DNA of 63,833 nucleotides, filler included, from Jimgerdemannia flammicorona (lineage: Eukaryota): the NCBI GenBank assembly GCA_003990765.1. It is 2 parts of 2 records of this genome, joined end to end, with 100 filler letters (N's around TTAATTAATTAA, not from the genome) between each part and the next. Parts side by side here need not be neighbours in the genome. Positions count along the whole stretch, not along the records: positions 1 to 31,875 come from RBNJ01000376.1; 1 more part is not named here. One strand, written 5' to 3'. A program made the translations under genes and the position numbers. Positions within the stretch are counted from its first letter, which is position 1. Each line of letters opens with the position of its first letter. Below the pieces are notes generated by a model. That model worked only from the letters and a program-made list of their open reading frames with translations, had not been told where the DNA came from and did no database searches. Positions 1,154 through 43,280 of the stretch are shown one piece after another.

Positions 1154-4081
1154 TCTCCCTCTCCTTAAGAATTACTGTCCTTATTAAATTCTGAAAATTA
1201 TACATAATAAACAAAAAAAATATATCAGCTCATTGGCAAGGACTGGCCATCCTTATATAAGGTGAGGGCCACAGTATCATCTTGATCAGATGAGAACTGA
1301 TTCAAACCTTGTTGGTTACAAGATTAATAGGGTTCTCCTATATCTCTTATTTCTGATACTATATCCTTTAGAGTGTTCCGATGCTTAATATGTCTGATCA
1401 GCACAGTATGTCATCTACTATCCAAGAAGAGATCCTCATAGGCAGTCAATGAGTTCCTTTTTGCTTGAACTCTTAGATGAGGTCTTGAGAGTTCTTGAGA
1501 TTGGCAGCAGGTTCCCAGGTGGTATCATATTCAGGATAACCCATCCACTTGACTAGGTATTCTGTGTGATGGTACTGGACTTATTTGTCTAAGATTTTCT
1601 CAACTTTATACTCAATGTGGTCTTCAACTATCACTGGTGCTGATGGTGTCAGAATTCAGCCAGGATATGGAGGTGACTGGTTCTAAGCCTTGAGTTGTGA
1701 CACATGGAATATTGGGTATATATGTATGGTTGTTGGTAAGTTGAGGCAGTAAGACTAGGTGGAGACTTGCTCAGTAATCTCAAAGGGTCCAAGGTACTTG
1801 GGCTGGAATTTGACTGATTGGCAGTTGACTTGAGATTGAGCCTTGATGTTGTTGGCTTTAAGTAGAACCATATCACCAATGTGGTATATGACATCTCACT
1901 GCTTCTTATCTGCATACTTAGCTTGATGTTGCTGAGCCTTTTGTAGGTTTATAGTGGCAATCTTGAGAAGGAAATCCATTTTGTTGATAAGGTTCTGGGC
2001 TGTGGAGACTTGTGTGTAACTGGATTGCTGAAATAAGACTAGGCTTGCAAGGGTCTTGGGGTTTTGACTATAAAGTAGCTGAAATTGGGGAAAGGCCAGT
2101 TGATGATTAGATGGCATTATTGTAGATAAACTCGGCATAGGTCAGATAGTGGTCCCAATCATCTTGCTCATAAGATATGTAGTTTCTGAGCATTTGTTCA
2201 AGTATTCTGTTCATTCACTCAGTCTGTCTATCAGTTTGAGGGTGGAAGGCAGTGGACATAGCAATTTGGGTTCTAAGGGGCTTGAAGAGTGCTTGCCAGA
2301 AGTGGCTTATATACTTGGGGTCATGGTCACTGATAATTACTTAGAGAAGTCCATAATGGTAGAAGACAGTCTTGAAGAAGATTCTTGTGATTTCTGGGAT
2401 AGTGGCATTGGTTGTGGTTAGCTTGGTGATTGTAATCTTAGTGAGATGATCCACAAACACAACAATAGCATCATAGCCTGTTTTGGTTCATGGGAGTTAC
2501 ACAATGAAGTCCATTGTGACTTGTTCAAACTTCTTGATTGGAATTGGCAAGGGTTGTAGAAGACTAGTAGATGCTTGGTTGCTTGACTTGATTTTTTTGC
2601 AAAGTTTGTAGCTTTGGACATACTCCTTGATTTCCTTGAGCATATTTGGCCAGTAGTAGTCTTGTTGGATATTCTTGATGATCTTCTCAGTTCCAAGATG
2701 ACCAGCTAGTAGGGAGTCATAATGTTCATGAAGAATCTTATACCATAGTTCAGAGTTGGCAGGAATATATACTTTATCTTGATAGTATATGAGATTGTCC
2801 TTGATGGTATACTTTTTCTTGAATTCCTTGGTATTCCTTTATAGAATCAGAGAGTCTTGTTTGTATGCCTTCTTGATCTAATTGAGGAATTCAGGTACCA
2901 TGGTGACTTGTAAAATTGCAGCAAGGTCAGGTCTTCTTGAAAGTACATCTGGTACAACTAGAGTTTTACCAGGCTTGTAGATGATATTTGGGGTAAAGGT
3001 CTGAAGTAGTTGACTCTACTTGGCTTGTTGGTGAGAAAGGATTGGTTGAGTGTTGATATACTGAAGACCTGTAATTAGTGATCATGTCAAACTCAACTCC
3101 TTCTAGGTAGTATTGCTAAGTCTTGAGGGCATGCATGATTGCCAAGAGTTCCTTTTCATAAGTAGCCAGCTTTTTTTCTACAGGAGACAATTTTCTTGAC
3201 TCAAAGGCAATAGGTCAGTGTCTTTGACCATTATCTTGGGAAATGACTACACTAATGGCAAAGTTAGATACATCTATAGTAACTATGAACTTCAAGTTTG
3301 GGTCTATGTTTCTAAGGACAGGTGCATGGGTCAGGCAGTTCTTGAGTTCTTGAAAAGCTTGTTGACAGAAAGCATCCCAGATATAGGAGACATAGAGATC
3401 AGAGTTGGGTTCCTTTTGCAGGAGGTTTGTCAAAGATTCTGTAATACCAGAGAAGTTCTTAACAAATTGATGGTAGTATCCAGCCAGACTAAGGAAGGAC
3501 CTGAGTTCAGTGAGGTTTACTGGTATAGGTCACTGTTTGATGACTTGTATTTTTCTTAAATCTACTTGAATTCCTTTGGCTGATATAATGTGTCTAAGGT
3601 ATTTGACTTGATCCTTGAAAAATTTACATTTCCTGAGTTTTGCATAGAGCTTGTTCTCATGGAGGATCTTGAGGACTTGTTCAATGTGCTTGAGGTATTC
3701 TTCTTCAGTACTACTAAAGATCAGGCTGTCATCAATATATACAAGTACAAAGATATAGAGCTGATCCTTGAAGACAGTTTGTATGAGATCTTGAAAGGTT
3801 GCTGGTATATTGGTGAGACCAAAGGCCATGACTAGAAATTTTTAGAGTCCAAAGGGTATCATGAAGACAGTCTTGGGTATGTCTTCTGGCTTGATTTGAA
3901 TTTGGTGATACCCAGAGGTGAGATCAATCTTAGTGAAGTACTTTGCATTTTTAAGAGCATCAAAGATTTGATCTATAAGTGGTAGCAGATAATGGTTCTT
4001 GACTGTGATCTTGTTGAGTGCTCAGTAGTCTATGCACATTTACAGAGTATCATCCTTTTTCTTGACAAATAGGACTAGTGC
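1154..4081 (-). mobile_element. Ty3/Gypsy chromovirus pol remnant (RT-RNaseH-integrase-chromodomain), 5'-truncated
   Basis: RT motifs 'LVLFVKKKDDTL', 'FGLTNIPATFQ' and 'VYIDD' (3530-3829). RNase H 'FIVTIDVSNFAISVVISQ' (3215-3433). Integrase region ~1700-2750. Chromodomain 'EYKVEKILDK..EYLVKWMGYPEYDTTWEP' (~1500-1615). Many in-frame stops. Confidence 0.9.
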
Positions 4082-6396
4082 TGGCATTATTCAGTATAAC
4101 CATGAGACTTAGAGCAGAATGTTCAAGATTATGGGGGCTTCATCATCAGAGATCAGGATGTCTTCAAAGGAGATGAGGTCTGTAAATGTCTCATCTGTCT
4201 CATTATTTTTTTTTTTTTTTTTTTTTTTATAGTCACTTAGACTCTGTCTTTATTACCAGTCTATAAATAAGTATACAATATCACCACCTACTATCCGATC
4301 CCCCTTGGAGAGCCCCTCTCCTCCCCTTCATGAATAAAGATCACCCTCTCACCAATTACTCCAACTCTCCCACTGCTCTGTCTACAGATTTTCTCTACCA
4401 AGCGGTACCTCCGACCCCTCTGCAGCCCCCAATCAAGCCACTAGTCTGTCAAGGTATCTTCCATAAGTCTCTGCCACCACGACAACTGGCTCCCCAAGCT
4501 CTGTCACCTCCCATCCTCAAAAACAAATAGCCAGTGACCAGCCAGCCCAACCCAAATAGCCAATGCCCAACCTAAGGTAATCCACTCCTTTCCTACCCCA
4601 CCTACCAACCAATCCCTCAAGTCCTCCCACCTCCCCCATACTTCATCTCTCCTATACCTCACTCCCAAGTGGTCCCCAATGATCTGCCAAAAGTCTTCCA
4701 ACACCTTGCACTCTCCTAGCCAATGTTCTGGCATCTGTACAAAGCCCCCCTCCTGCTCTACATTATGGCACTCCTCACAATCAAAGCAACCCCCTACAAC
4801 AAGGTGCCCTGAGTAGAAGTAGAGCATTACATTCCTCCTCAGCATGTACTACCAGACCACCCAGTACTTCAGTGGCATCCATTTTCATACTGCAGCACTC
4901 CAGATCCAAATACCATGCCAGTCCCACTCTTCTCCAATCCCAACTCCTTGCCAACTGCTAGGCCACAGATCCTGGCCTGGTCCCCTTTGGCATTCTATTC
5001 CATCACCAACATTGAACTCAAGTAAAGGCACCCCACCCAGCAATATGCTATCCCATCTCCACATCTCTAGGTCCCAGGCCTCCTCCCCCTCATTCCCCTG
5101 CTAGTGAATATCAATGTGGTGTGCCCCCTCCACTATCCTCTACCAGAAACCTTTATATTGCAATTGTGCAGTATTCTGAAGACCAACCAATGTGAGAAGA
5201 TCACCCATTGAGCCTCTTGGTGATGACTGCCTCTCCCAGACCTTCTGCAGTAGAGGAACTCAACCCCCTCCTCACAACTCCACTGCCCTCTTAAGTTACC
5301 ATGCCCTCAAGCAGTGTAGTCATTTGAGAAAGTCCACCAGCCCAAGACCACCTCTCGCCACTGGTCATCTGTCTCATCATTGTCATCATGTAGGTTGTAT
5401 TTCATGTACTTCACATATTTCATCACACATCTTACATACCTTGTGTACTTTATCATATATCTCACATATGTCATGCAGGATGACATCATTGCTGATGACA
5501 TCATCATATTTGGTGGTGGGAAAATCAGAGGCTCTCCAATCTATGAGGTTCTCTTCTACAAAGTAGGAAACAAATGTGGGGTCTTGTGGAGGTCTAACCT
5601 GGATACTTGGGTCTTGGAATACTAAGATCAATTCTTGCAGGAATTGATCTGAGTTGTCCTGGAGAATGGGATGCTAGAAGTCTTCTACTTCATCACTATT
5701 AAGGGTGATAGTGGACTGGGCTTCTATAGTCACCCTGGCTTCTAGTGCATTGATATAGCAGGATGATAGGTCTCTGAAATCTGAGACTCTAACATACTCC
5801 AAGTTGGGGATCGACTATGGTGTATGCCTGAAGATCTGATGGATCTTCTTAGCTGTCCTTATTTTATATATATCCATAGGAGTAGCATCTTGTAGCTCTT
5901 GAGGGCTGGCCTGTGGGAACTCCTGGCAGAGGAGGTTTCTTATTTCATATTTCTGCTATATTTGGAGGCATTCAGTAGCAATAGTGATCCTTGTTTCCAT
6001 TTTACAGCAGTAGAGGATATAGTAATAGGGATCACCAGTAACTAGGAGTTCTTCTTGAGTGGGTCCTCATGGCTCTTCTGATGTCTTGGAACATCCTTTC
6101 TTCGACCAAGGTTTAGTAGTTCCTTGACCTTGAGGTTTGGTGGGCAGTAGGTATTTCGTTTATAATAAGTCTTTGAGCTATTTTGGGATTAGTGTGTCTT
6201 GTTGATTGCTGTTACTGTGGTTTCTTGATCCTTCTTTTATATTCCTCAAGATGCTTGTACTGTGGTCACAATGACTCACAGTTGGTCATCATTGCTCATC
6301 TCATATGCTGTATGATCTTCTTGTGCTCTGATCTGGTGGCTTGTAAGGAAAGACTGTCTCCTGTACTGATGTCATCATTCTGGAGTCACCATTACA
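4074..6396 (-). repeat. 3' LTR of the dUTPase Gypsy element (R/U5 end missing; interrupted by a LINE)
   Basis: Direct repeat of 12502-13666 once 4208-5364 is removed. It begins TGTAAT on the minus strand at 6396, right after a purine tract AGGAGGAAGA (~6397-6406). Confidence 0.85.
4208..5364 (-). mobile_element. 5'-truncated L1-like LINE with poly(A) tail and ~17 bp target-site duplication
   Basis: Poly(T) at ~4206-4228 on the plus strand. Similar to the 3' end of the LINE at 43207-44425. TSD tcatctgtctcattatt (4191-4207) / tcatctgtctcatcatt (5365-5381). Confidence 0.9.
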
Positions 6397-9300
6397 TCTT
6401 CCTCCTGAATAAAGATCTTCTTGAGTATCTTTATTCATTAGTCCAGTTCTGAAAAATTTGCTAATCCCATAACCTCTGGCAAGGGATCAAAAAGTGGTGT
6501 TTATAGACTGGCATCTTCCCTATGTATTTTGGTATAATGGTGAAGGGTCACTCTCTTCATATAGAGCAAGGACCTGATTCTGATCTTGACCAATTAGTTG
6601 ATGGTTCAAATTCCTCTGGCTTTGAAAGTCTCATGGATGAGTAGTTGCTAGTGTCATATTCCTTAGAAAATTATCCAGACAGATAGCCTGCTGGTCACAG
6701 GACATGCTGTTATGATTCGTGGACTAGGACCTTGTGGGCAGTCATCATATTTTACTTCTCTTGTATAGGTTCATAGTACTTCTTGAGTCTGTTCCTATGT
6801 ACTATAGTAGGCAGATGGTCCCTGAGATTTTTCTAAGCCAGAAGGTAGTTCTCTTGATATCTTGCATGTAGAAGGGTCCTTCCCATTTGGGCTCTAGTTT
6901 TCATGACCATGAGGCTTCTACCATATTTTGATACAATAGGACCTTTTCTCTGATTCAAATGGGTTCTAGAGTCTTGTGATTCTTTTCTGCATTCTTCCTT
7001 ATCAGTGCTTGTGACTTGATAATGTAATCTTCAGCCTTCTTCCTGATTTGGTGTAGTCTCTGGATTTTTGCATCAATCTATCTCTAAGTTAGGTCTAGAT
7101 TTGTGACTGAGGTTCCATCAGAATCTTCTTCTCCGAAGAGCAGTTCTCTTGGGGTAAAGTGTGTGCTCTGTGACTGTATATCTCATAGGACAGAGAGGAC
7201 AGTTGGGAGATAGTTATCCCAATTCTCATATGTCTCTGAGATCTTCACCAGGATGTTCTTGAGGGTCTTGTTGGTTCTCTCTATCTGTCCATTTCCTTGA
7301 GAGTAGTACACAGTGGTCTTGATGTACTGGATCTTGTATTTCTGATATATTATCTCATGAATCCATTGACAAATTCTGTGCCACAGTCTATTGTGATTTG
7401 CTTTGGTGTCTTGTAGTAGCAGATGATTTCTTGGTATAGGAAGTCAGCTATAGAGAGGACATTGGCTTCTTGTAATACTCCTGCTTCTATCCATTGGTAA
7501 AGAGATCTACAATAACTATAATATAGTGGTTTCCTGATAGTGTTACTGGTAGTGGCCCAATGATATCTATTATGATGTGGTGGAAGGGGATAGGCTCAAT
7601 TCTTGATGACCCAGGTGCCTGGTCTTGCTGATCTTATTTCTGTTTTTAGTACTTGTTACACCCTTTGACAAATTGGTGTAGGTCTTCTTCTATCTTGGGC
7701 CACTACATGGTTCTTCTTACCTTGTCATATATATTGGTTCCTTCTAGGTGTCCTTGCTTATGTACTTTCTTCATTACTTAATACTTCTTATATGTATTTG
7801 AGTATTACTAGCTTTCCTCCTTTTCTGAGTGTAGTATTGTCTAGTTCAAACTGTTTCCAAGTCTGGTTGATGATAGTGATTATCTAGGGTTTGAGGTGGT
7901 TGAGCATCTTCCACTGCCCAAGATAGCTGATTAATCCATAGTATAGTACCTTATTCATATTGAATAGTCTTGATGGGGGTATTTCAGGGTATCCTTGAGA
8001 GTACATCAGCATTGGTGTTGGTTCTTCCTGAGCAGTGCTTGACAGTACAGTCATACTCTTGCAGCCTATAGATCCATCTGACATATATTCCTTTAGGGTT
8101 CAGAGTGTGGAATAGCCAGACAAGAGCAGAATGATCTGTTTGAATAGTGAAGTGTTTCCTGGCTAAGTAGTAGTAGAACTTGTCTACTGCCCAGACTACT
8201 GCTAAGCATTTGAGCTTACATAACTCATAGTTCTATTCTACTCTGCAGGTACCTTGGCTTGCATAGGAGATGACATATTCATGTCCATCTTTCTTCTGAG
8301 CTAGGACTGCTCCAAGTCCTATAGCACTTGCATCTATCTACAGGATGAATTCTAGGTTCCAATCTGGTCTTCTGAGGATAGGAGCTTGGGTCAACCTGGT
8401 CTTGAGTTCATTGAAGGTTTCTTGGCATTCCTTGGTCTATTCAAATTTGGTTTCCTTCTTCAGTAGCTTATAGATAGGTGCTGTAATGTTGGAGTATCCT
8501 TTGATGAATCTTCTGTAGTAGCTGGCCAGTCCAAGGAAGGCATGGACTTCTGTGGTTATTCTGGGTCTCGGGTAGGCTGCAATAGCCTCAATCTTCATGA
8601 GGTCTGTATGGATTCTGGTCTGGTTGATGAGGTGTCCTAGGTAGGCGATTTCCTGAGCCACAAACTTGTATTTCTTGGGCTTGATATAAAGGCCATACTC
8701 CTTGAGCTTCTTGAGGGTTAGCTATATATAATTGACATATTCCCATATAGTGTTACTGAAGATGATCACATCATCAACATAGACAAAGAGCTATTTTCCA
8801 ATCTCATTGCTGAAGACTCTGTTCATTATTTACTAAAAACTTGTTGGGGCATTGCACATTCCAAATAGCATTTACAGATAGATATAGGTGGCATCAGGTG
8901 TGATGAAGGCTGATTTCTCACTGGCATCTTGAGTGAGACCAATTTGATGGAAGCCTGAGAACAGATTCAAGGTGGTATAGTATTTGGCTTTGCTTCCAAG
9001 GGTGGTAAGGATTTCTTGAATATTTGGCAAGAGCTGCCTATCCTTCTTAGTGATGGCATTGAGCTTTCTATAGTTAATGCAGAGTCTTGGCACAAACTCT
9101 CCAGGCTTACTTTCTTTCTTCAGGGCAAGGACAATGAGTGAAGCCCAGAGACTGATAGCTTGCTTGATAATTCTAGCTTCTTCCATTTCCTTAAGTTCTG
9201 CTCACAGCCATTCTCTGTAGGTAGGTGGTATGGGTCTGGCTTTCTGATAAATGGGCTTGATATATATCACCAGTGTCAACTTTGTAGTAGTACTTGGGTT

Positions 9301-9477
9301 CTTAATTGTGGATATCTCTGAAGTCTGTAGTAAGTACTCCTTTGTTTTGATACAGGATCTTGAGAAGTTGTTTTTCTAGGGGAAAGTTTTCTCCAATAGT
9401 ATATATATACTTGTTCTGGTCCTTGTCTTTCTTGTACTCAAGTTCAGTAATCTTGGTGGCAGTATAGGCTCCTCTTT

Positions 9478-9890
9478 CAGTAGATCCAAAGCCTTGTTCT
9501 CCTCTCTTAGTCTTGATGAGTTCAATGGCTTCAATGATCTTGGGTTTCTTGATTTCGTGGATCAGTATCTGGCCAATCCTATCATGCTTCTTGACTTCAA
9601 ATGGGGTGGTAGGGTTGTGATTCCTGACTATGAGGAAGATCTCACCAGTGTAATCAGAGTCAATTAGTCCTCCTTCAACTGAGATTTCACTTTTGGCCAG
9701 ACTGCTCCTGGTCTTGATGATTCTGGCATAGTTCTCTGGTAGCTTGACTTCAATTTCAGTGCCAAGTAGGGTGGTGGTCTGTAGTTTGAGGGTAGTATCT
9801 TGAATGCTGACAAGGTCTATTCCTATGGCTCCTTCAGTCTTATATTCTGGGATCTTGGCTTCAGGGTGAAACTTCTTGACCTTGAGGGTG
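9478..9890 (-). CDS. Trimeric dUTPase domain within Gypsy pol (inside open segment 9302-10216)
   Basis: All five dUTPase motifs appear in order: GAIGIDL, KTRSSLA, GGLIDSDYTGEI, HDRIGQI, RGEQGFGST. Confidence 0.93.
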
Positions 9891-12082
9891 ATGTCTGATT
9901 CTTGTTCCTCCTTATTGTCACTGTCAGCCTGAAGCTCAGAGGGCTGATCATCTTCTTTGGCTTTCCTTTTTGCTTTAGCAGCTTCTTGCTCATGTTTCTG
10001 TTGGCAGATTTTCCTGACTTTACTTATACAGGACCAGCAGTCATTCAGATCTTCAGAGTAGTACATCCTAGTACTATAGGGGTATCTTTCTTGAGAGACA
10101 TAGCCATCAATGATCTTATTATACCACTGCTCATCTGTGAGCTTGGGTGTCTTGTTCTTGTTCTTGTTTACCAAGTATATGAAGATCTCTGTGTCCTCTT
10201 CATCTTCTTCCTCCATGTCTAGTAGAACTCCTTTGTAGACATTGATAGAGACTCATACCTTTCTTCCTCTATAGTTGATCTGCATCTTCTGGATATTGAG
10301 ATCAATGATGGCCTTGGCCTTGTAATGCCATTGATTGCCAATGAGGATGTCATAGTTGGTAGTGCTTGTAACAATCATATCTACTGGGATGGTAGCTCCT
10401 CCTATCTTGATGGGGACTTCTCAGATTTTGCCAAGGGGGGTAGCTCATGTACTATCTGCTGTGACATAGACCATCTTGATGGACTCTTCAATGTCTCAGC
10501 CTAGGCAGTCAATTGTCTTCTTGCTTATGAGGTATTCTCCAGCACCAGTATCAATAATGGCATTAAAGATACAGTCTTCAATCTAATATGGGGTATAGGC
10601 TGATACATATCTTGCACTGATCTTCAGATTCTTCATCTGAGTTTTTGTATTCTTTCTGTGTATTGTGAGCTTCTACAATCTTGTACTCTTGATTCTTGGC
10701 AGTAGTTACAAGTCCTACTCTCAACTGCTGTCTGAAGGTAGAGACTTCAGCTAGCTATCCAAAAGTGGCATTGACCTTCTATTCCTTAAGATCCTTGTAG
10801 ATATCATACTGATGGATCTTGGTCTTGTGCAGCTTCTGTTCCTTCTTGCTTTTGCTTTCTTCTGAGACCGGAGTAGTGCCTTCAATTATTTGGTGGGCAG
10901 CTTCATCTAACTCTATGTCTTGATCAATCTTTTTGAATTGAGTCTTGCTTTGAATAGTGATAGCTGGGGTCTTCTTTGGTCTTCCAACTGGTTTGCTGTT
11001 GCTCTTCTTATCATAGAGCTTAGACTGGGTTCTGGTACCTTCAGTAGCAAGGTAGAATTTGAGCTTCTTATAGTATTCTTCATCATCAGTGTCACCAATC
11101 TCCTCAATAACTACTGCATTGGTTTGTTCTCTAGTTCTGCTAGTATTGCTTAGTTGGGCTTTGTGTCTTGTTTTGGTTATGCAATTCTTTGCATAGTGGT
11201 CTTCTTCTCTACATCTAAAGTATGTGTTATTGTATTCTTCTGTAGCAGCTGCAAATCTCTGCACTGGTCTCCTGTTGGCACTTTAGACTTCTCTAACCAT
11301 ATCACCAAGGTATGCAGTCATCTCAGTGAACTGCTTGATAAGTTCCTCCACTGGGTCAGCTTTGGCTACCTTGGAGATAGGTGGGGTTGATTATCTGTTT
11401 ACAACTGTGGCAGATATAATACTAGTTGGCTTTGATGGCTACATCTTGATGTCAGTTATTTTCTCCATTGAGTGTTTTGCAGGGTGTCTGGCAGTCTAAT
11501 ATCTCTGTACAAAGACCACTTTCTGATCAAGGGTTAGTGCAGCTGGAGTAGACCAAATTGCTAGGGCAATTTCAGGGTGAACTTCTTTGAGGAAGGTTGA
11601 ATCTGCTATTTGTTTCTTGAGGGCATCATTATAGTCAGCCAAGACAATCTGATGGCAGATTTGAGTATAGAATGAGTTGGGATCTTCACTAAGTCCCTAG
11701 CAGATAGTATTGAGTTAATCCTTGAGAGCTTGCTTGATCTCTTCAGTATAGTATATTGTTCTGAGAAAGGCCTTCATGTTGGCAAGTTTGGCTGTACCAT
11801 TATCAGTAATAGTGGCTGTATTGAACTTGTCTCTGACAGGTCCTCTGAGGCTGACTGATAGAAGGGCCAATTGTACATCCACACTAAGGGCTTGTATAGT
11901 GGCAAATTTTTCAAAGTCTTCAATGAAGGTCAGAATTGACTCTTCAGTAGTATATCTATAGAATGTAGGAGGGCACATTTCTATCTTGTCTTAAATTCTT
12001 GCAGGGGTGATTCTTGTAGTCAGGGTAGTTGTTGTGGGGTTGTTCGTTTTTCAGCTTGAAAGTGAGAGATTCATCTTGAATC

Positions 12083-12100
12083 ACCAGCCAATGGGCACCA
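12083..12100 (-). promoter_or_regulatory. Primer-binding site (tRNA 3' end complement, possibly tRNA-His)
   Basis: The minus strand reads ...TGTGACA act TGGTGCCCATTGGCTGGT, i.e. TGG starts 3 nt after the LTR end. The tRNA identity is an inference from the GGCACCA end. Confidence 0.7.
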
Positions 12101-12103
12101 AGT

Positions 12104-13666
12104 TGTCACATAGTAGTCACTGAGTCCTTCAAATATGCCAGATTCTCTTCAAGATGTATCTCTTAGACTAACTCAAGTTTGTTATAAGCAAGTTCTTATT
12201 GGAGTGCCTTCCTAAGGTCTTATAGTTCTCAAACTTCTTATCTTTAAACTGTCTTGTTGTCTCTTAGATTGCTTGTAAGGAAGTATATATATTACACTGA
12301 GAGGAACTAATTTTATTTCAGAGGAAATAAGAGGAGTATTTATACAAAATATAAATTAATGGTTGCCAAGATATAAAGCTAAATATAAATTTCAATAACT
12401 AAAATAAAATGCCAGAATAGGAAAAACTGCTAAGTTCCAGGGTTGGTACTAATGATTATACAGATTCAGAAAGCTGGCATTATTTAGTATTACATCAGAA
12501 TACTGGTGCTGGCATTATTCAGTATAACTATGAGACTTAGAGCAGAATGTTCAGGACTATGGGGACTTCATCATCAGAGGTCAGGATGTCTTCAAAGGAG
12601 ATGAGATCTGCAAATATCTCATCTGTCTCATTGTTATCATCATGTAGGTCATATGTTTTACATACTTTGTGTGCTTTATTATACATCTTGTATACTTTAC
12701 ATACTTCATCGCATGTCTCACATATGTCATGCAGGATGACATCATCACTAATGATGTCATTATGTTCAGCAGTAGAGAAATCAGGAGCTCTCCAATCTAT
12801 GAGGTTCTCTTCCACAAAGTAGGGAACAAATGTGGGGTCTTGGAGAGGTCTAACCTAGATGCTTGGGCCTTGGAATACTGAGATCAATTCTTGCAGGAAT
12901 TGATCTAGGTTGTCCTGAAGAATGGAATGTCAGAAGTCTTCTACTTCATCACTATTAAGGGTGATAGTGGACTGGGTTTCTGTAGCCACCCTGGCTTCTA
13001 GTATATTGATATAGTAGGATGACAGATCTCTGAAATCTGAGACTCTAATATACTCTAAGTTGGGGATTGACCATGGTGCATGCCTGAAGATCTGATGAAT
13101 CTTCTTAGCTATCTTTGTTTTATATATATCTATAGAAGTGGTATCTTGTAGCTCTTGAGGGCTGGCCTGTGGAAACTCCTAGCAGAGGAGATTTCTTATT
13201 TCATATTCTTACTATATTTGGAGACATTCAGTAGCAATAGTGATCCTTGTTTCTATTTCACAGTGGTAGAGGATATAGTGATAGGGGTCACCAGTACCCA
13301 GGTTGATACTAGGAGTCCTTCTTGAGCAGGTCCTCATAGCTCTTCTGATGTCTTGGAATATCCTTTCTTTGACTGAGGTGTCTTGGTGGTTCCTTGACCT
13401 TGAGGTTTGGTGGGTAGTAGGCATTTTGTTTATAGTAAGTCTTTGAGCTATTTTGGGATTAATGGGTCTTATTGATTGCTGTTACTGCAGTTTCTTGATC
13501 CTTCTTTTATATTCCTCAAGATGCTTATACAGTAGTTACAATGACTTATAGTTGATCATTGTTGCTCATCTTGTATGCTATATAATCTTCTTATGCTCTA
13601 ATCTGGTGGCTTGCAAAGAAAGACTATCTTCTGTACTGATGTCATCATTCTTGGATCACCATTACA
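12104..13666 (-). repeat. 5' LTR (~1.56 kb) of the dUTPase Gypsy element
   Basis: TGT...ACA termini (tgtcaca at 12104, attaca ending at 13666), adjacent to the PBS. TATA/AATAAA pair at ~12310-12345. 12502-13666 is repeated at 4074-6396. Confidence 0.85.
12537..13424 (-). pseudogene. LTR-encoded ORF of unknown function (~295 codons, interrupted only by stop codons)
   Basis: ORFs 13212-13424 and 12537-12815 share one frame (starts 609 nt apart). The sequence between them reads through with only TAG/TAA/TGA interruptions. TATAAAAG lies upstream at ~13504-13511. A homologous copy is in the 3' LTR. Confidence 0.65.
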
Positions 13667-14720
13667 AGATATATATAGATATCTTCTCCAGATATTTGAT
13701 ATATATTATTTATATATAGAATATATCTCTATCTTAGTTATTATTAGTTTCAGTAATATTTGTATTATATTATTCTTTATTATTTTCTCAATTCTTCTTG
13801 CTACTCTCATATTATCATCATTGGCCTTTATACTTATTTTCATTATTTTCCATATTCTTATATGTAATAGTAATTATTTTATATATATCTATATTTACTA
13901 TAGTAAGATAGTTTTTATTCAGATTTTTAATTTTATAAATACTTCTTACCTCATCTATATGATCTATAGAATACTTTTTCATTATTATCAACACTATTTT
14001 CTTGATACATCTCCTTGTTTATGAGGCTCATTATTATGTGGACATAGTTTGCAAGTTTTTATAGTACTACTATAATATTGTATATCTTCAGAAAACTTCT
14101 TATATAATAGCCAGGGTCTTATCTTTGTTATCTATATACTCTGCTGTCATACTTAAGAAATTTACTTGATTTACTAGATCATCAATATAATTAATATATT
14201 TATAAATACTCTTCTTGGACTTTATTTTAAATTAAATAGTTGAGATTTTAGATAAAACTAATTTAATATAAATGCTTATATATGATAATTATATAGAGTC
14301 TCCCAACTTCATAAGTGATCATTGTATATATTATATACTTCATTTGCAAATTTAACAATATGAATATAATCTTATATAATACTTAGCAATTATTTATAGT
14401 ATTGTAATTTTAAATATCTATAGTTTTATATACTCTACTAAGCTATATTCTTCTAGGAGATTACTTATATAGAATTATCCAAATGGCATGATTCTTGCTG
14501 TCAAAGATTGGGATTAACCTCTTGGCTGTGTTTATACTTGCCACAGAGACTGTGACTATTATCATATCCATTTCAGAAGTACTTACACCTGTTATATTTA
14601 GTATACTCATACTGGCTCCTTGATTTGTCTCTTGTGACATCTTGGTATAGAGTGGTGTATAGTCTTAGAGAGGTGTTTATTAGCTGCTAACTGGGACTCA
14701 TAACATTTGTTGTATCTTAG
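13667..14720. mobile_element. Very AT-rich degenerate repeat remnant, family unresolved
   Basis: Extreme TpA enrichment and CpG loss. Residual 'CKLCPH' on the minus strand at ~14040-14055. Confidence 0.3.
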
Positions 14721-15256: not shown

Positions 15257-18200
15257 CTAGACGAGTTCGATATCTGTCCGTCTGGGGCTTCTCCCGGCCT
15301 TCATGAAACCAAGACATCCACAGAATCCACGGGATTTCTTATGATCTTCATGATTGCCTTGCACTACCACCTCATACTTCTTTGAAATCTGCAAGAATAC
15401 CTGCTCCATTCTCGTTTGGCTCACGCTGTAATCCAATACGCCCAAGTCAGCCTTGTTGGCTTCCACGAGTTCAAACATAGTCGCCGGACTAAGTTCTTCT
15501 TCGACAGGCACCTCGAACTTCACGTGTCCCCCATACTGCTCCAGCAACCTCGCCGCCTCGTTGCTCTCGACGTTCACCTCTAGCTGGTACCCAGCGCCGA
15601 ATTTTGCCGTGAGCAGCTGCGGGCTGCCCAGCGCTCTCAGTTTGCCGTCTACCATGATTCCCACGCGGCTGCACACGGCATCCACCTATGACTTGTCAGG
15701 ATTATGGCTTTTGTCGGCTGTAAGGCCGCTAAGATTGACCGGGTGAAGCGCTTGGCCGCTGCGTCCATGCCGGTTGAAACTTCGTCAATAAGGAGGACGG
15801 GAGGGTTGCCGAGCGTTAGCGAGAGAGACTTTGCGCTGTGAGAACCGATGGCAAGAATATCAGCTTTAGATATTTCGGAATAAAATAGCTAACCGAGTAG
15901 ATAAAAGCCAAGGTCAGGTTCATATGCATACCTTATTGCCACCCGAAAGCCTCTTCGCCAATTTGTTCTGGTGATCTTGCAATCCAAGTTTGCTGATCAA
16001 CCAGTTCACATCGTGGTCCCTTTCGCACGCCGCGCAGCCGAGCAAATAATCTCAACTGCCGTCGGACCGTCAAGCCCACAACGATGCAGTCGAATTGAGG
16101 CACGACACCAATGGAGTTTCGGATGCTCGCCAATGAATCATACACCGAATGCCCAGCCACTTGGATTTGGCCGGACGTCAGGGCAATGTCGCCGGCGATG
16201 ATACTAAAGGTGGTTGTTTTACCTACAAGTGGAGTCATAAGGTTGATTAAGCGCACTTTTATTATACATTACTTCAACTGAATTGAAGACATTATGACTT
16301 AAACAACCTTACCTGCTCCGTTCATTCCGATCAATCCGAAGCACTCGTCGCGCTCTACCCCAAAAGATGTATCCTGGACAGCAACCTTGTTGGGGAAGAT
16401 GAGACATCAAGATGTCTTTTTCGAGTGAGGATCTGAAATCTCCCAAACGATCGATGCGCGCCTGCTCCGCCAAAACATCAGAGTCAGTGGGATTTTGGGG
16501 TCCTCCTGTTCAACGTTCGCTCCAACATTTCGTTCGCGCCTTCCCACAAACAGGTTCCTGATACTGGACCACTCTTCCAGCAACACGGCCAATAGGAACA
16601 GTCCCTCTATATGCCCGGAGAAAGACCACAACGACCATCCCAGCATGTACGGGTCCAGCATCCTCTGCGCAGCAACGACGGAGTCAAACGTAGGGTTCGA
16701 TTCGCATTGCGCACCGAGGATATTGACTCCCACGTAGAAGGAGTGCAAAAACCCAACCATTGGAGATAACCATCCCATGACCAGGAAGACAGTGTCGCCG
16801 GAGTGCGGCTGAGTCGGGTTGGAAGTAACCTGGAGCTGGATGTAGGTGGGTAAGAAGGCGATGAACCATGCCAACGCATAGCCGACTGCGATGTTGAACG
16901 CCTCACCGACGGTCTTGACTCGACACACTGAAACGACATAAGCGATTATTGTCGCCACGCAGCCGTATGAGAACCGAACCGTGAAGGTCAGGTGAAGAGG
17001 TAGAGCCACAAATGGCCAACATGCAGGTTAATCATCAAGGCGTCTATGATGAACATATCACCACCACGGTGATCACGTCGTAGAGGAAATTGTCCAGCTG
17101 GTACGTCAACCCGTTGGCGTCGCTGACTCTTTGCAACCGCTTGCCACCGCTAATATTCTCGCGCGTCGAGAAGGCAGGGTGGATAAGGTATCCAAGTGCG
17201 GAAATCAAGACGAGAGGACCAAGTTGTTGCATTTGCTGGCCCATGGCGTCACGGAACTGGCGCATGGGCTTAATCGAAAATTTCCCCCATTTTATTTCTC
17301 TTATTACAATCACACTTAATATGATTCCCTCCCCAAGTCTGAACACAACCTACAACCACAGTTAATGTGATTCCCTCCATTCATTCTCCCAAGTCTGAAC
17401 ACAACCTTTTTTGCACAGATCGATACGAAGCTCCGGAGCAAGCCCTCCCTTCAGCTGGCCATCTTCTCTTGAATCTCGCGGAGCTGGGCGTACAAGTTGC
17501 GACAGGACTGAGCGCAGCTCTGGCAGTGCTTATTCTGATGCTGTTTGCCCGGAAGATGTGACGAGAGAGAATATCAGTGATGAGCGAACCAGAGTAATGA
17601 AAAAGAAACTCGAACGAATTGGAAACGAAAACAAAGCAGGAGGGAACTTTATGCATAACAATTTACCTTTTCACTGCGGAATGCGGGTGAGGGAGTGAAG
17701 GGATGGGGGCCCATAGTTAGGATAGGGATTCGAGGTACATAGGACGAAAAAGGAAACGCGACACCATCGATCGGCAAAAGCAAAACGGGCGTCATACCAC
17801 ATCTCAGCGCACTTTTCTGCAGTCTCGATCGTGATGGGCGTCACCTTGGCGAGCACGTCCATGTTTTGCAGGGCCATAATGCGGGCGGTGGTGTCGCAGA
17901 GTTCTGCGCGAGTGGCGAAAGCGAGTTGGTTAGGAGGCGTGCAAAGCCGATTGGGACCAATGCTCTGGGATTAACGAAGAGCGTCAACTCTACCGGCGTT
18001 GACACGACAGTGTTGGGTGCAATCGAGGCCCTCGCGCGAAGATTTTTCGGCGCAGTGCTAAAGGTGGTTCGGGAGATGAAAGATTGATGTAAGTAAAAAC
18101 GAAGTGCGTTTGAATCGAAACCTCAATGTGTTCGCAAATGTCATACCAAGCAGTCGGCCATGGTGCTCACGCTACCAGATTTCGTTCGGTTATCGTAAGG

Positions 18201-31875: not shown

Positions 31876-31975
31876 NNNNNNNNNNNNNNNNNNNNNNNNN
31901 NNNNNNNNNNNNNNNNNNNTTAATTAATTAANNNNNNNNNNNNNNNNNNNNNNNNNNNNNNNNNNNNNNNNNNNN
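31876..31975. other. Artificial assembly linker (44 N + TTAATTAATTAA + 44 N)
   Basis: Exactly 100 bp and symmetric, with a six-frame stop linker at 31920-31931. Confidence 0.95.
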
Positions 31976-32720: not shown

Positions 32721-33354
32721 AAACATACTGAATCTCCAAAGTATGTTTGCTGTTTGCAGTTGTGTGATGGGTATCAGTTCACTACCTGTGCAAATTTATT
32801 CATCTATTCTCTATCTATAATTGATCTTTGGCTATTGCACCTTATGCTACTACCTCATTACTCTCTATCTTACTGTCTCCCTTACCGACTTCTGTTCCAG
32901 GCCCTACAGTTCCTGGCTTCTCCTGGTGCTCACCACCCCCAACTCTCTGTCCTCAACTTTCTGCCCCCTAGTTCACTATCCCCCCAACTCATTTCCCAGT
33001 TTACTACTCCCTAGCTTACTACTTCCTAGTCACTTTTCAGCTCTTGACCTCCTACTCAAGCTCTCAGTCTTTGCTATTATCAAACACTTTTCAAAATATC
33101 TAAAGATCAAGAAGTATATTTAGGAGAAATCTCAGAACCATCAGATAATATATTAGATATCTTCACTAATTCATTATCACTAATAAGTATAAGAATAAAA
33201 ACCTAGTGATAGCTGGATATAGAATCATGTTACAAAGATAGTTTTATACATTGTACTAATAGTTGTATTCATAGAGATGGTTGGTCTCATCAGTCATAAG
33301 GGTGGTCAGTTATAAGAGTAATTGGTTGTAAGTAGTTAAGGTTCTAATATAATT

Positions 33355-33394
<40 letters not shown>

Positions 33395-33439
33395 TTCTAA
33401 TATAGTCTCATATCTCTCTATTCAAATAGAATTTACAAA

Positions 33440-36400
33440 GTAAGCTCATCAGTTGTAACCATTGCATAACTTGGAGCTATATATTGAAGAATGTCAATAT
33501 TAATAATCTTAAATAATATCTCTGGAAGCATCATAATACTATACTCTTACCTCTCTAGTGTGCTGGGAATCCTTACTGGTCTAAGAAAGATGATATTGTA
33601 AATATAGATAGAATGGAATTCAGAAAGTACTTAAGAGGTTATTAGAAAAATAATTTATCAAATTTTATTATTATAAATAGAAATATACTAGTAAGACTTT
33701 AAGTGATAAAAATTTCTATCAGTTAATTGCCAACTTTATTGTCACTAGATATTAGCCATTTTCCACTATTGAAAACTCTGGCTTCAAGTATCTTCTTTAC
33801 ATATTATGCTCTGATCTAGTCCTTCTATCAACTGATATGATTTCATAAGTTATTCAAAAGAAATTTAAACTATTGCAGACTTAAGTGAAAGTAAGCCTAG
33901 CAGGGCTTAAGTTGAAAGTATTACTTATACTTGATTATTGGATATTAAATATTAATATTAGTGAAATAACACACATAGGTACCAATCTTACAAAAAGTCT
34001 GAAGCTAATAATAGATGATTTATTGCTTAGTGATAATTAAATTATTACTATTGTGTATAATAATACTAGTAATAATGATACTCTATTTGAGAATCTCTAT
34101 TATCTGCTTACTCATATATACTATTTTGAATATATGTTGAATCTTATCATTTATAATGCTCTTGGTTCTCTTAGCAAGCCCATTGGAAGCTATAAGAGTT
34201 AATAAAGAAGATTAAAAATTCAGTACAATGATAAGTACAACTGGTAAAAGTCTGTGAATTCTTCAGAATTCTCATTTTGAAGCCTCTCTTAGATATTATG
34301 ATAAGATAGAGTTCTTTACATAAAATGTTAACATATGCTTTAGAGATTTGTAAGATAAGATTTTGAATCTATTTATATAGATTTTGGAATGTAATTCAGA
34401 AGTACAGTGACTTACAAAACTGGTCCAATGTTTTATTATTTTTTACTTTTTATTATTTTAAAAATAGAAAAAAAAATAGAAAAAATATGAAACTAAAGTA
34501 TGTTGTAGCCCTATATTTGAAGTTTCCATAGATCATAATTTTGTCATATTTGGTATTATTTTTGCTATTGAAAATAATTTTTAAAAAAGTCCATGCATTG
34601 GACTAGTTTTGGAATGACCATCTCAATAAATATATTTTTGTATTACAGATCATCAAAAAATCGCTGTATAAGCCAGAAATTTTGCATGATTATTCTCTTA
34701 ACCCCTCTCTACACACTCAATTTTTTTTTTTTTTTTTTCTATCTCTTTTTTTATTTTTAAAAAAAAATGAGAAAAATCTTATTGGATACTCAAAAAACGT
34801 CATTGCTCTGCTAAACTTGGGCATAGCGACACGTCAAATCACTGAACAGACTGGTGTTAGCAAGACAACTATAATCCATATTAAAAAGGAGCATTGCTCT
34901 ACTACATTGTTGAAAGGAGATCATTCAAAAATACTCTCAGATTATAACAAATCATGGATTGTTTACCAGGTGACCAGTGGCAATGCTGATATGGCCCCTG
35001 AGGTTGCAAAACTACTCCAAGAAGATGGCCAAGCAAAAGCCAGTACCCAAATGGTGCATTGTACCCTGAAGAAAGCTGGTTTGAAGGCTGCTGTAAAACA
35101 AAAGAAACCCCTACTCTTCCACCAATATATAAAAGCTTGATACAAATTTGCATACAAGTATAAAGAGTGGACAGTTGATGATTGGAAGTGCATTATATTC
35201 TCTGATGAGACCAAAATCAACTGTTTTGGGTCTGACAGTTGACAATGGATATGGAAACACCAAGGTGAACCATTGATAGTGAACTATGTGACACCAACTT
35301 TAAAGTTTGAGGGTGGTTCCATTATGGTTTGGGGCTGCATGAATTACTGTGGTGCCGGGTACACATGCAAGATCGAAGGAAAAATGAATGCCGAGCTTTA
35401 CCAAAGCATCCTTGACAACGAATTAAAGAAATTGATCAAGTATTTCAAGATCAATCGAAAATAACTGATATTTCAACAGGACAATGACTTGAAGCATACA
35501 TCACACATGGCAACGAAATGGTTCAAGGATAACCACATTCATCTTTTAGACTGGCTGGTGTAGTCTCCAGACCTAAGCCCAATCGAGCACCTGTGGGCAC
35601 ATCTCAAAAGACAGCTCAATCTATATGAGGAACCGCTGAAGGGCATACACAAGCTTTGGGAACATATGGAAGAAGAATGGAATGTAGCCAAGTATGTAAG
35701 GATTTAATCGATAGTATGCCAAGGTGTGTTGGCATGGTGTATAAGGCAAAGGGAGGCTATGTAAAGTATTAACCAGTATTGTATTTAGTATTTTTTGAGA
35801 TGGTTATTCCAAAACTGGTCCAATGTGCAGATTTTTTTAAAAATTATTTTTATAGCAAAAACAATACCAAATATGATAAAATTATAATCTATGGAAACTT
35901 CAGATATAGGGCTACAACATACTTTAGTTTCATATTTTTTCTATTTTTTTTTTCTATTTTTAAAATAATAAAAAGTAAAAAATAATGAAACATTGGACCA
36001 GTTTTGGAAGTCACTTATTTTGGTACTAAATAAATTGATATTATATCCAAATAGGGCTTAGATATATTGTGTACCATAGATAAGCAAATGAGCAATATAT
36101 ATGAAGATATATGGCAATAATTTGAATTGATTTGCTAATTTCTTGAGCCTTTTGCCAAAGTGACAACTATGATGTTAGCTTTGAAGTATCCTATAATAGC
36201 AGCTGTTATTTTACTATTTAATCAGCTATGTAATTATCTTGAAGATATCATTGATACATATCAAACTAGTGAAAATTTTAATCAAGTATATATATGATTT
36301 TGAAAGTAATTTTATTTGTGAATTTAGGAACTAATTTAGTAAGTAATTGAGAAGTAAAATGTATATATTTCTATTTATTTTTTATTTTTTATAAATAATA

Positions 36401-36995
36401 CTTATTGCTGCTAAGAATGCACATATGAAACTTCTAAAGTATTACTGCAAGATAACACCATTATATAGCATAGCTTTAGCCTTAGATCTATATATCAATA
36501 TATATTATTTCTATTATAAGTAATGGAAAAAATCCTTAATTGATAAATGGAAGAATCAGATAGAATATATTTGGAAAAAGAAGTATAAGCATATTAATAC
36601 TGTTATTATATCCTCAATATCTCATGAAGCTGATGATTTTATCAACTCAATATATAAGAAAAAACAGCACATTAATATGAATGATGAGCTTGAATAGTAA
36701 GTGTTGTTTTTATGTTTTTTGGTTAACTTGGTTGATTTTCATTTATATTTCTCTATTTCAGTTATTTGTTAGAGAATCTAGCTGATCCTCATATAGATAT
36801 ACTGGATTGGTGATAGTAAAATAAGTCAGTATATTCTAATTTTTTATGAATGGCTCATAATTATCTTGCTATTTCAGTGACATCTATTCCATCTGAATAT
36901 ACTTTTTCTATTGCTGGTGAGCTGGTAACTGAACATCAAAACAGCTTATATGTAAATATAATTTGTGCATACATATGTTTAGATTCTTGGTAGTC
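33440..36995 (+). mobile_element. hAT transposase remnant (intron-containing), split by a Tc1 insertion
   Basis: BED-like 'CNHC..LWKHH' (~33450-33535). 'PFSTIENSGFK' (~33757). 'NNTSNND' (~34060). 'FLEPFAKVTTMM..KYP' (~36140-36195). Dimerisation-domain-like 'MAHNYLAISVTSIPSEYTFSIAG' (~36850-36920). Confidence 0.85.
34405..36015 (+). mobile_element. Tc1-family (DD34E) DNA transposon with ~225 bp TIRs
   Basis: TA|CAGTGACT...AGTCACT|TA ends. TIRs at ~34405-34630 and ~35790-36015. Transposase ~34767-35772 with 'FSDETK', 'FQQDND' and, 34 residues later, 'SPDLSPIEHLW'. Stops and frameshifts present. Confidence 0.93.
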
Positions 36996-37069
36996 TTTAG
37001 ATATTTTTCACTTCCAATTGCTCTAAATATTATCCAAATATTATCTAAATTATTTTTTTAGAGTAGAGT

Positions 37070-37450
37070 TCAGAGGGTCAGATTCAGGGTCAGGTTCAGG
37101 AGTCAGGATCAGAGTTGGGTTCAGGGGTTAGGTTTAGGTTTGGGTTAAGAGTAAATAACAGGTTGAGTGATATATATTTCCAGGTCAGGTTAAAGATGAG
37201 TTATATTTAATTCTGGGTCAGGTTAAAGATGGATAATACATCTTTTCAGATTAGGTTAAAGATGAGTGATATATAATTTTATATTGGGTTAAAGATAGGT
37301 AATATATAATTCTAAGTCAGATTAAAGATAGGTAATGTATAATTTCAAGTCAGGTTAAAGATGGGTGATATATAATTCTAGATCAGGTTAAAGACAGATG
37401 ATATATAATTTCAGATTAGATTAAAGATGGGTAATGTCTAATTCTAAGTT
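37070..37450 (+). repeat. Subterminal tandem repeats of the hAT element (GGGTCAGGTT runs, then ~39 bp CAGGTTAAAGATGGGTGATATATAATT units)
   Basis: About seven imperfect units lie immediately downstream of the hAT transposase. Confidence 0.7.
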
Positions 37451-37529
37451 GGCTGTTTTATGGATTGAGTTTTAGATTAATCAGATTTATAGAATACTAA
37501 GCAGCAGTACTCTTCTTATCAACTATAGT

Positions 37530-39340
37530 TATAAGAGACTTATTCTTTACTATATACAGATGAAATTCACCTTAGAATCTAGGTTCAATGAGTTTACTTA
37601 AGTCTTGGTGATTTATATACTAGTCTCAGTTCTAGTATAAGTTAGCTAGATTTCTAGAGTTTAGTCAGAAATACTAAAGTTACTTAGGTGTTATTACTAA
37701 GACTCAGGAGAATATGTATATAAAGGGGAAGCTTGATTCTTATATCAAAGACTAAACTAAAACTGCTTTATTTTAGATAGAAACTGGGGAGTATTTATAC
37801 AAGTTGGTCTGCAATTTCTGACTAAGTATAAATGACTAATTTAGTAACTATAGTGAGGTTTATAATTATGATCTTTATTAGATAGTTTGTAATCAAAAAC
37901 ACTTTATAATTAGGACCTCAATTGTTAAGCAATGATCAGAGTTACTATAGTGCTGATTGCTGCAGCACTGATTGTTAAGGATAAGCTAGATATCATTTTT
38001 TGCATCATTCACATCATTCATTATATTTGTCATTTATATATTATATATTATACTTGATTGATGGTAATATTATTGCTGGGTCATGTGATTACTCATCATA
38101 TATCATATCTCATCTGTTCACTTGTTATTTATTCTATTATAACTACTCAAGAAATTTAATATGAAGAATATACAATCTATTTTGATATTCAATAAGAATT
38201 AGATATCTCTTTTGTACTTAGTTTAGAAAGAGACCAAATAGAATATTTATCTGTTAAACAATAGATATCAGTAGAAAGATAATCTCTAGAATTAATAAGT
38301 TCAGAACTTAATACAAATTTATAAAAAGCTAGAAAATTACTTAAGACTCTTATCTTAGAACTTTATATATCTTCACACTCAGCACCTGTTCCTTACTCAG
38401 AACCAGAACTTAAACTAGAAGATAGACATCCAGATTCTGAATCTAAACTATTAGTAGAAGATCTTTCTGAAATAGAAAAACTACTAGATACATTATCTAA
38501 AGAGAAGAGGAAAGCAATAGATCTTTAGAAGAAGAAGATCTTGAAAGACTTTTTAAAGAAAGCTTTAAAGATTTAGATAAAACTTTTAGAGGACCAGAGT
38601 TTATATCTGATCCAGTAATCTCAATAATAGCTACTGATGTATTAATAAGACAACTAATAGCATTAGTTAATCTAGCAGAACAAATAGCAATTATGAATCA
38701 ACTAGCTAAAATACTATTAATTTTCACTTTTGGAGAAATATCTATAGATCTACCAGAATTTATAAGTATAGTAGATAATAGATATAAGTACAATAGTTAA
38801 AATGATCAAAAGAAATCCAAACTCTATCTTAGCAAAAAATATATTACATACTACAGAAGAAGTCTTTGTAAAAGCCCAAGCTCAAACTACTAAAGTAGCT
38901 GTATATTTTTAAGATTTAGCTACCCTCTAATATCATAACTTAAATTCTAAACTCCTTATATAGAAAGATAGAATTAGAGTAACTAAACAAGATACTATAA
39001 GAGACCAATCAGAATATTATGATGAGCAAATAGTATAATACATATAACCAGATAACATAAACTCTCAGCATAGTATAGTTACTTATAACCACCATACTTA
39101 TAATTAGTCAAGAATACCAAATCAAGATTGTTTATCTGTGTCCTGCAGACACACTCATATTCTACAGATACACTTATGTTCTATGGATACACTCATATCC
39201 TGCAGATATACTCAAGTCCTGAGGATATACTCAAATATTACCAGAGATGGTAAATTTATAATTATCTAAATAGTAACCAGATAGCAACCATAACTGTATA
39301 AAATATCCCAGAGACAACAGTCATAATCCAACCTAAAGTA
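37530..39340. mobile_element. Degenerate LTR-like segment followed by gag-like remnant
   Basis: 37765-37800 has the same TTTATT...GGAGTATTTATAC arrangement as the LTRs at ~880-900 and ~12311-12344. The downstream region is CpG-depleted and stop-ridden. Confidence 0.4.
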
Positions 39341-39344
39341 AGCC

Positions 39345-43203: not shown

Positions 43204-43280
<77 letters not shown>

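Follow-up and report, generated by a model that had tools for sequence, protein, structure and literature searches.

A probable accessory gene inside the long terminal repeat of a decayed Ty3/Gypsy retrotransposon from Jimgerdemannia flammicorona

The 63,833 nucleotides of Jimgerdemannia flammicorona DNA analysed here (the whole stretch, hereafter the window) carry on their minus strand a degenerate long terminal repeat (LTR) retrotransposon with the domain order of Ty3/Gypsy elements, as recognized by BLAST, Pfam and reading of the sequence. Its 5′ LTR contains a sense-strand open reading frame (ORF) of 295 codons, now a pseudogene (12537–13424, minus strand; ATG at 13424, TAA at 12537), which is interrupted by five internal stops. 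We consider this frame to be the dead copy of a genuine accessory gene of a dUTPase-bearing Ty3/Gypsy family, located inside the LTR, and put the probability of this reading at roughly 0.6. Comparison at the level of sequence demonstrates that the gene is real and that its coding frame has been under purifying selection across diverged copies, while within the window it is only a fossil. A gene in this position is doubled with each insertion and survives in solo LTRs, which changes how the load of 'dead' LTRs in genomes is to be read. Because it is an orphan maintained by selection, with no recognizable domain or fold, it is also a candidate for a new participant in the struggle of transposons with the defence of fungal genomes by repeat-induced point mutation (RIP) and silencing.

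Purifying selection on the coding frame

An earlier note on this DNA had described a near-open sense frame of ~295 codons running from 13424 to 12537, broken in the 5′ LTR copy only by stops of the C-to-T type, and both statements were borne out. The internal stops of this copy, all on the minus strand, fall at codon 71 (TAG, 13214–13212), codon 72 (TAA, 13211–13209), codon 82 (TAG, 13181–13179), codon 165 (TGA, 12932–12930) and codon 190 (TAG, 12857–12855), whereas the remaining five frames of the 888-nt stretch contain 13–37 stops. Under a first-order Markov model, 21.1 ± 4.4 stops are expected per frame; the best of three simulated frames had six or fewer with a frequency of 0.0002, and composition is ruled out as the cause of the openness because five or fewer stops were reached in 0 of 5000 simulations. 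Intact homologs align with the frame colinearly from end to end, with no frameshift. Opposite its five stops the intact proteins have W, Q, W/R, W and Q/R, and every stop is one or two C-to-T or G-to-A steps away from the homolog codon. At codons 70–72, all four contigs of sequencing run X1 that cover them read ATG-TGG-CAA, compared with ATA-TAG-TAA in the window.

The intact homologs form a tiny family. With the window translation as query (P0001, X at the stops), four matches were obtained among 412 candidates, at E-values from 1e-55 to 1e-107. When 1.84 billion cluster representatives were searched exhaustively with a profile, five proteins were recovered at E ≤ 0.001, and a profile search of a 5.8-billion set recovered 11, all of them hypothetical proteins on contigs of 600–4848 bp, with P0010 on the one of 4848 bp. 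Full-length, uninterrupted relatives on metagenome contigs (P0002, 271 aa; P0010, 342 aa; P0012, 325 aa) start with MP and have in common the blocks W-[QH]-[ED]-Y-E-I, H-Q-[IV]-F-R-H-x-P, L-x-D-N-x-D-Q and F-[QE]-G-P. The frame has been kept open over deep divergence, since P0010 and P0012 are intact at 40% and 28% identity to P0002, respectively. No fused or longer form was found among 8000 candidates scored in the class of 600–2000 aa, which is weak evidence. At the nucleotide level, a metagenome scan with P0003 led from 92 pattern matches to a single locus (L001), a metagenome contig of 1345 nt with an intact ORF of 323 aa and ~70% nucleotide identity to the window. A metagenome scan with the family alignment gave 243 pattern matches and a scan of viral contigs 154, with none confirmed in either; among genome contigs, 68 pattern matches yielded one locus (L002), rejected as a spurious 15-residue match in a bacterial metagenome-assembled genome.

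The contig L001 allows selection on the frame to be assessed. Over the span of its ORF, the coding frame has one stop, the terminal one, compared with 13–27 in the other five frames. Between the window and L001, the 210-codon core gave pN 0.23, pS 0.68 and dN/dS 0.15 (Nei–Gojobori), and all 289 aligned codons gave 0.19 by the same method; dS is saturated, so that these ratios are approximate. When the alignment was read out of frame as a control, pN/pS rose from 0.34 in frame to 1.11 and 1.62 at shifts of 1 and 2 nt. The proposal of the earlier note that the LTR carries an accessory gene is thus upheld by homologs intact down to 28–40% identity and by a frame-controlled dN/dS well within the range below 1 that it had named as a test, carried out here between the window and L001.

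Comparison of the two LTRs in the window likewise demonstrates how the gene died here, both copies having been pseudogenized after insertion by RIP-like CpA-to-TpA transitions. The LTR pair differs by 128 transitions versus 4 transversions. In 92 of the 128 transitions the C belongs to a CpA, compared with 321 CpA among the 828 C-N dinucleotides that remain; transition excess and CpA preference together constitute a RIP footprint, which also speaks for a fungal host. Codon 165 reads TGA in one LTR copy and TAG in the other, both one step from TGG. With 27 synonymous and 64 nonsynonymous codon differences between them, the copies look like products of neutral post-insertion decay, as expected. 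The frame had been said to be present in both LTR copies, and so it is, but the 3′ copy is far more damaged than was implied: its ATG has become ATA, codons 14, 71, 118 and 165 are stops, three deletions have removed 3, 11 and 2 bp, and it has been further inactivated, beyond these indels, by the insertion of a 1157-bp retroposon.

Extent of the LTR and position of the gene

Two direct LTRs flank the coding region of the element, with 12502–13666 matching 5365–6396 and 4074–4207 at 86–93% identity. In a BLAST comparison of 12001–14200 with the window, 12619–13666 corresponds to 5365–6396 (85.9% identity over 1048 nt) and 12502–12635 to 4074–4207 (92.5% identity), and MAFFT alignment agrees with these limits. 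All parts lie on the minus strand. The repeated part of the 5′ LTR (12502–13666) begins with TGTAATGG at 13666, and the upstream part of the 3′ LTR (5365–6396), which holds the second gene copy with its altered start (ATA, 6154–6152), begins with the same TGTAATGG at 6396. The downstream part of the 3′ LTR (4074–4207), with the end of that gene copy, follows beyond the 1157-bp insertion (4208–5364), and homology stops at 4074.

A second TATA box and a poly(A) signal extend the picture beyond the repeat. The sequence TGTATAAATAC, with its TATA box TATAAATA (12337–12344, minus strand), lies ~190 nt downstream of the ORF stop, and an AATAAA (12312–12317, minus strand) lies ~220 nt downstream; we propose them as the core promoter of the genomic RNA and the poly(A) signal of the LTR. 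Both keep their relative place in L001 (1218–1225 and 1244–1249) although the surrounding sequence has diverged. Further on, TGTGACA at 12110–12104 is followed after 3 nt by TGGTGCCCATTGG from 12100, where a site resembling a primer-binding site (PBS) and beginning TGGTGCCC was read from the sequence (12084–12100, minus strand), and gag starts 120 nt further. This is the usual ACA/spacer/PBS/gag layout. In comparison, the end of the visible repeat at 12502/4074 reads ...AGT and has neither a CA terminus nor a TGG-type PBS or target duplication beside it. At the other end of the interior, the polypurine tract AGGAGGAAGA (6397–6406, minus strand, read from the LTR alignment) abuts the 3′ LTR, whereas the PBS-like site is adjacent to its LTR only if that LTR ends at 12104.

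The true LTR is therefore more likely than not about 1563 bp long (13666–12104), judging from these sequence features, with 12104–12501 on the minus strand (ending ...TGTGACA, and with no partner copy in the window) as the probable remainder that contains the end of the unique 3′ region (U3), the repeat (R) and the unique 5′ region (U5). The gene would hence lie in U3, because an LTR extended to 12104 places the second TATA box downstream of the ORF. The earlier note had assigned it to U3 outright; that the gene is internal to the LTR holds, and U3 itself is likely by virtue of the downstream TATA box, AATAAA and PBS-like site, in one copy only. The 3′ LTR of the window would be truncated by ~400 bp, which is likely explained by a deletion junction at 4074. 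At this point the LTR adjoins a 5′-truncated reverse transcriptase (RT)/RNase H fragment of an unrelated, older Gypsy family (3044–4039, minus strand; 33–48% protein identity to the pol/RT of the element), and a remainder of that older element was not found beyond 13666. Because the LTR abuts a truncated foreign RT with no such remainder, its 3′ end appears to have been deleted there. An alternative LTR end at 12279 (...CCTTACA) was rejected, as no TGG follows and L001 is still alignable past the equivalent point.

The gene also has start signals of its own. The earlier note had placed a TATA box ~80 nt upstream, and TATAAAAG (13504–13511, minus strand) was found 79 nt before the gene ATG, with the same sequence in the 3′ LTR copy and L001, where it occupies positions 4–11. 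The longer sequence GAATATAAAAG is likewise identical across both LTR copies and L001. In both the window and L001 the first ATG after this TATA box is the gene start, at 79 and 57 nt, respectively, and this ATG stands in a conserved context, ACAAA(A)ATGCC.

Some further observations concern the same region. The repeat end at 12502 is located within a pair of imperfect ~35-nt units with AATAATGCCAGC in common (12490–12530, minus strand), a contig of run X1 has a variant of 12490–12530 with a further unit-like piece, and this short repeat, absent from the output of Tandem Repeats Finder, may have mediated a rearrangement at 12502. The contig depth of run X1, which is RNA by guess only, is high over 12118–13470 and almost nil over 13471–13921 and most of gag-pol, and in runs X1 and X2 (soil metagenome) depth falls between 12178 and 12067. 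Such depths would agree with a transcript confined to the LTR and with an LTR that ends near 12104; neither pattern was used as evidence.

Protein, rival explanations and possible function

Judged by its composition, the product is a soluble, acidic protein (isoelectric point 4.5–4.9) with no hydrophobic segment, the maximum 19-residue Kyte–Doolittle mean being ≤ 1.07. It is composed of an N-terminal part of ~47 aa with a net charge of +3 to +7 in four of the five sequences computed, a conserved core of 165 aa modelled as mostly helical, and a tail of 59–126 aa, modelled as disordered, whose net charge ranges from −15 to −25 among the four sequences that allow it to be delimited. The acidic tail pointed out in the earlier note is conserved in the family; it contains the motifs DLISFEDI, DLINFS, DLITFS and DLDIW and a conserved C-terminal [VI]LNF[LT][LI], including VLNFLL. 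The Cys-periodic segment described alongside it does not hold as a feature of the gene. It is a Cys-rich in-frame insertion in a length-variable linker (approximately 12630–12716, minus strand; residues ~237–265), found in both LTR copies here, absent from all seven homologs that span the region and thus peculiar to this element, and Tandem Repeats Finder detected no tandem array in it.

Structure prediction, one of the checks proposed in the earlier note, was run with family sequences and gave no fold match at the thresholds used. AlphaFold with six sequences reached a predicted local distance difference test score (pLDDT) of 37.5, and with 14 sequences it modelled helices over residues 18–185 and a disordered tail. 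In the ESM Atlas, the best feature score was 0.83 with a template modelling (TM) score ≤ 0.33, which is at noise level. Pfam gave scores to FliL (E 0.057) and, in two of ten family members, to ATG5_HBR (E 0.088), which were set aside as sub-threshold noise.

What kind of gene this is can be approached by asking how else the frame could have come about. Chance openness of a strand rich in A and poor in T has a negligible probability: two other frames, with 13 and 14 stops, likewise have fewer than the simulated mean of 21, but five stops were never reached in 5000 simulations, intact homologs match at E-values down to 1e-107 and a dN/dS of 0.15–0.19 is confined to the gene frame, so that the homologs and the frame-specific selection test refute it. 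A captured host gene, or a small separate element that landed in the LTR of an ancestor and has been copied since without serving the retrotransposon, would agree with the lack of any match to a retroelement domain and with the gene's own TATA box, and it could use its own terminator as well. We regard such a passenger as improbable, as no cellular paralog is among the 11 proteins recovered, the order of ORF, TATAAATA, AATAAA and R/U5-like sequence is kept in L001 at ~70% nucleotide identity, and purifying selection holds among copies whose divergence is that of element lineages. A more serious competitor, although still an unlikely one, accepts the end of the repeat at 12502, so that TATAAAAG would be the sole promoter and the gene, lying in R/U5, the first cistron before gag; some plant elements have comparable 5′ additional ORFs, except that this one would begin inside the LTR. 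Within the window the repeat does end at 12502/4074, and the gene ATG is the first AUG past the only TATA box found in both LTR copies. However, R and U5 would then reach ~980 nt, and the LTR of 1165 bp would end ...AGT with no TGG-type PBS adjacent. In addition, 28 ATGs stand between the gene start and the gag ATG and would precede gag on one RNA (only two lie between 12310 and gag, both opening tiny ORFs). The conserved TATAAATA and AATAAA would also be part of a leader in which a poly(A) signal shortens the genomic RNA, and the 4074 junction resembles a deletion against a truncated foreign RT.

Several observations weigh against the preferred reading of an accessory gene in the U3 of a Ty3/Gypsy family. 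Both window copies are dead, and the window offers no sign of present activity. The 3′ boundary of the LTR and the assignment to U3 come from one copy, and the repeat visible in the window stops at 12502. No tRNA gene to match the PBS-like site was found in the window, and no matching target-site duplication of 4–6 nt was found between 13667 onwards and 4073 backwards; with the 3′ end apparently deleted at 4074, this copy is therefore unable to show one. L001 is the lone homolog with context and reaches neither LTR end, so that the distant P0010 and P0012 may lie outside LTRs. As for the protein, ten of ten members lack a Pfam family above the cut-off, and a sequence profile against the PDB gave 0 matches at E ≤ 10. 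The 14-sequence model is weak (mean pLDDT 55.7, predicted TM score 0.46), and the fold searches are weak tests because no model was better than this: Foldseek against the PDB gave no match at E ≤ 0.001, its best E-value being 0.89, and among 48161 chains in the wide VIA-align search none reached Z ≥ 5, the highest Z being 3.8. The N-terminus of P0010 is neutral (net charge 0), so its basic character is not conserved, and composition alone is the basis for reading the protein as an activator.

With regard to function, an intracellular trans regulator of 270–340 aa that acts on the element family is a tentative suggestion, and the likeliest form would be a nuclear factor of activator type that raises expression from the LTR. 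This is suggested because the acidic tail with embedded hydrophobic residues, the helical body and the often basic N-terminus resemble activators. The acidic tail modelled as disordered is present, and a DNA-binding domain was not found in Pfam and fold searches. The same gene could equally serve as a trafficking or assembly adaptor, or as a blocker of host silencing or RIP, with the tail motifs docking host machinery, and we hold an adaptor or counter-defence role to be about as likely as a trans-acting regulator, which leaves it just as doubtful. Possibly, then, motifs of the LISFE/LITFS type and the C-terminal LNFLL are short docking motifs. The tail motifs may resemble clathrin-box or dileucine-type motifs. 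The repeated D-L-I-x-F motifs, the conserved C-terminal [VI]LNF[LT][LI] and a basic N-terminus that is not universal in the family argue for such a role, while no fold or domain links the protein to trafficking or silencing proteins.

A transcription scheme can be proposed for an LTR that ends at 12104. The upstream TATA box TATAAAAG (13511–13504) would start an mRNA of ~1.2 kb whose first AUG is the gene start and whose end lies at the AATAAA (12317–12312), and transcription of the genomic RNA would begin from the second TATA box (12344–12337), at or past the poly(A) signal, giving a short R/U5, the PBS-like site at 12100 and then gag at 11978. With the poly(A) signal at or just before the start of the genomic RNA, it would be read only at the 3′ end, an arrangement that occurs in some retroviruses. 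Each LTR, including a solo LTR, would constitute a complete unit of promoter, ORF and terminator. It is conceivable, if doubtful, that the LTR is such a self-contained cassette around an orphan ORF, that its protein acts in trans across the family as activator or counter-defence factor, and that fungi have here arrived independently at the retroviral layout with a gene in U3. If true, every insertion would deliver two gene copies and every solo LTR would keep one, and the accessory function would outlive the elements, with a dose that scales with the number of LTRs.

Comparison with known systems and surroundings of the gene

Retroviral genes within or overlapping U3 are exemplified by sag of mouse mammary tumour virus and by lentiviral nef. 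As with these, a coding frame within the LTR gives two copies per provirus, and as proposed for sag, the whole frame here would precede the core promoter: L001 shares the second TATA box and the AATAAA that follow the ORF, with the probable LTR end taken from one copy. Unlike sag and nef, the window gene has its own TATA box directly upstream and shows no sequence or fold relation to them in our searches. Its product has no membrane segment, whereas Sag is a type II membrane glycoprotein, and its carrier, in contrast to retroviruses, is a fungal Ty3/Gypsy element with no env. In yeast Ty1, the gag ORF starts inside the 5′ LTR, and the window gene is similar in that its coding sequence begins within an LTR; it differs in that it both starts and stops there and is separate from gag, with stops in all frames between the gene stop at 12537 and the gag ATG at 11978. 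To our knowledge, almost no extra genes have been described for fungal LTR retroelements, and an LTR-borne gene with its own TATA box is unusual outside retroviruses. It was from extra genes of LTR retroelements that complex retroviruses evolved their regulators.

One extra gene of a fungal Ty3/Gypsy element is brtn, which was reportedly first described by Zhao et al. in 2011. In Botrytis cinerea it is carried in antisense by Boty-like (BcGypsy1) elements, according to a later account (PMC8365987). Compared by description, the window gene is like brtn in being an extra gene of unassigned function in such an element, and unlike it in being sense and in the LTR. Plant LTR retrotransposons carry additional ORFs that are lineage-specific, of unassigned function and located in the internal region, some of them antisense, as stated in the available portion of a review (PMC7264820); nowhere does the review use the wording 'within the LTR', 'in the LTR' or 'inside the LTR'. 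On the strength of that portion, the window ORF is similar to these in being an extra ORF kept within an element family, whereas it does not share their position outside the LTRs, being sense and wholly inside sequence repeated at both element ends. The available part of a description of a Podospora Gypsy family gives LTRs of 339–443 bp with a variable U3 and no LTR ORF (PMC10787394). A phrase search of open-access full text, which was not exhaustive, found no report of an LTR-internal gene in a fungal Gypsy element.

The internal region of the element (6397–12103; gag ATG at 11978) lies, like the domains below, on the minus strand and has the order gag, protease, dUTPase, RT, RNase H and integrase, all of which carry stops and frameshifts. 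Pfam recognized an Asp protease (10399–10759), a dUTPase between protease and RT (PF00692, 9302–10216, E 1.8e-27), RVT_1 and RT_RNaseH (7881–9186) and, after RT as in Ty3/Gypsy elements, the integrase zinc domain Integrase_H2C2 (7400–7879). For gag there is no Pfam match, and a CCHC-like knuckle was found on reading. The dUTPase ORF of 304 aa is the longest intact piece of the element. The insertion at 4208–5364 that splits the 3′ LTR gene copy looks like a retroposed element of non-LTR type or a processed transcript, because it ends, on the minus strand, in a poly(A) tail of ~23 A and has a target duplication of 13–17 nt, AATGAGACAGATGA. It is richer in G+C (about 0.45–0.47), with a strong C skew on the plus strand, and its ORF of 113 aa (4504–4845) has no Pfam match.

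Outside the element, pieces of an ABCA-type ABC transporter (15257–16238, minus strand; PF23321 R1_ABCA1, E 2.5e-07; PF00005 ABC_tran, E 1.8e-08) lie 1.6 kb from its 5′ LTR and are matched by contigs of run X1 at ~98–99%. By far the highest summed contig depth of that run, 12956, is at 17079–17500, contig depth being neither copy number nor expression. Two runs of 44 N occupy 31876–31919 and 31932–31975. The block at 33000–39000 has 25–36% G+C, compared with ~47–52% in the gene-bearing parts, which fits heavily RIP-mutated repeats. It is followed at 39000–57000 by ~17 kb of extreme GC skew (−0.3 to −0.52 per 1-kb window, with a C-rich plus strand), in which the only two ORFs of at least 150 aa overlap each other (47453–48721 on the minus strand and 47790–48671 on the plus strand).

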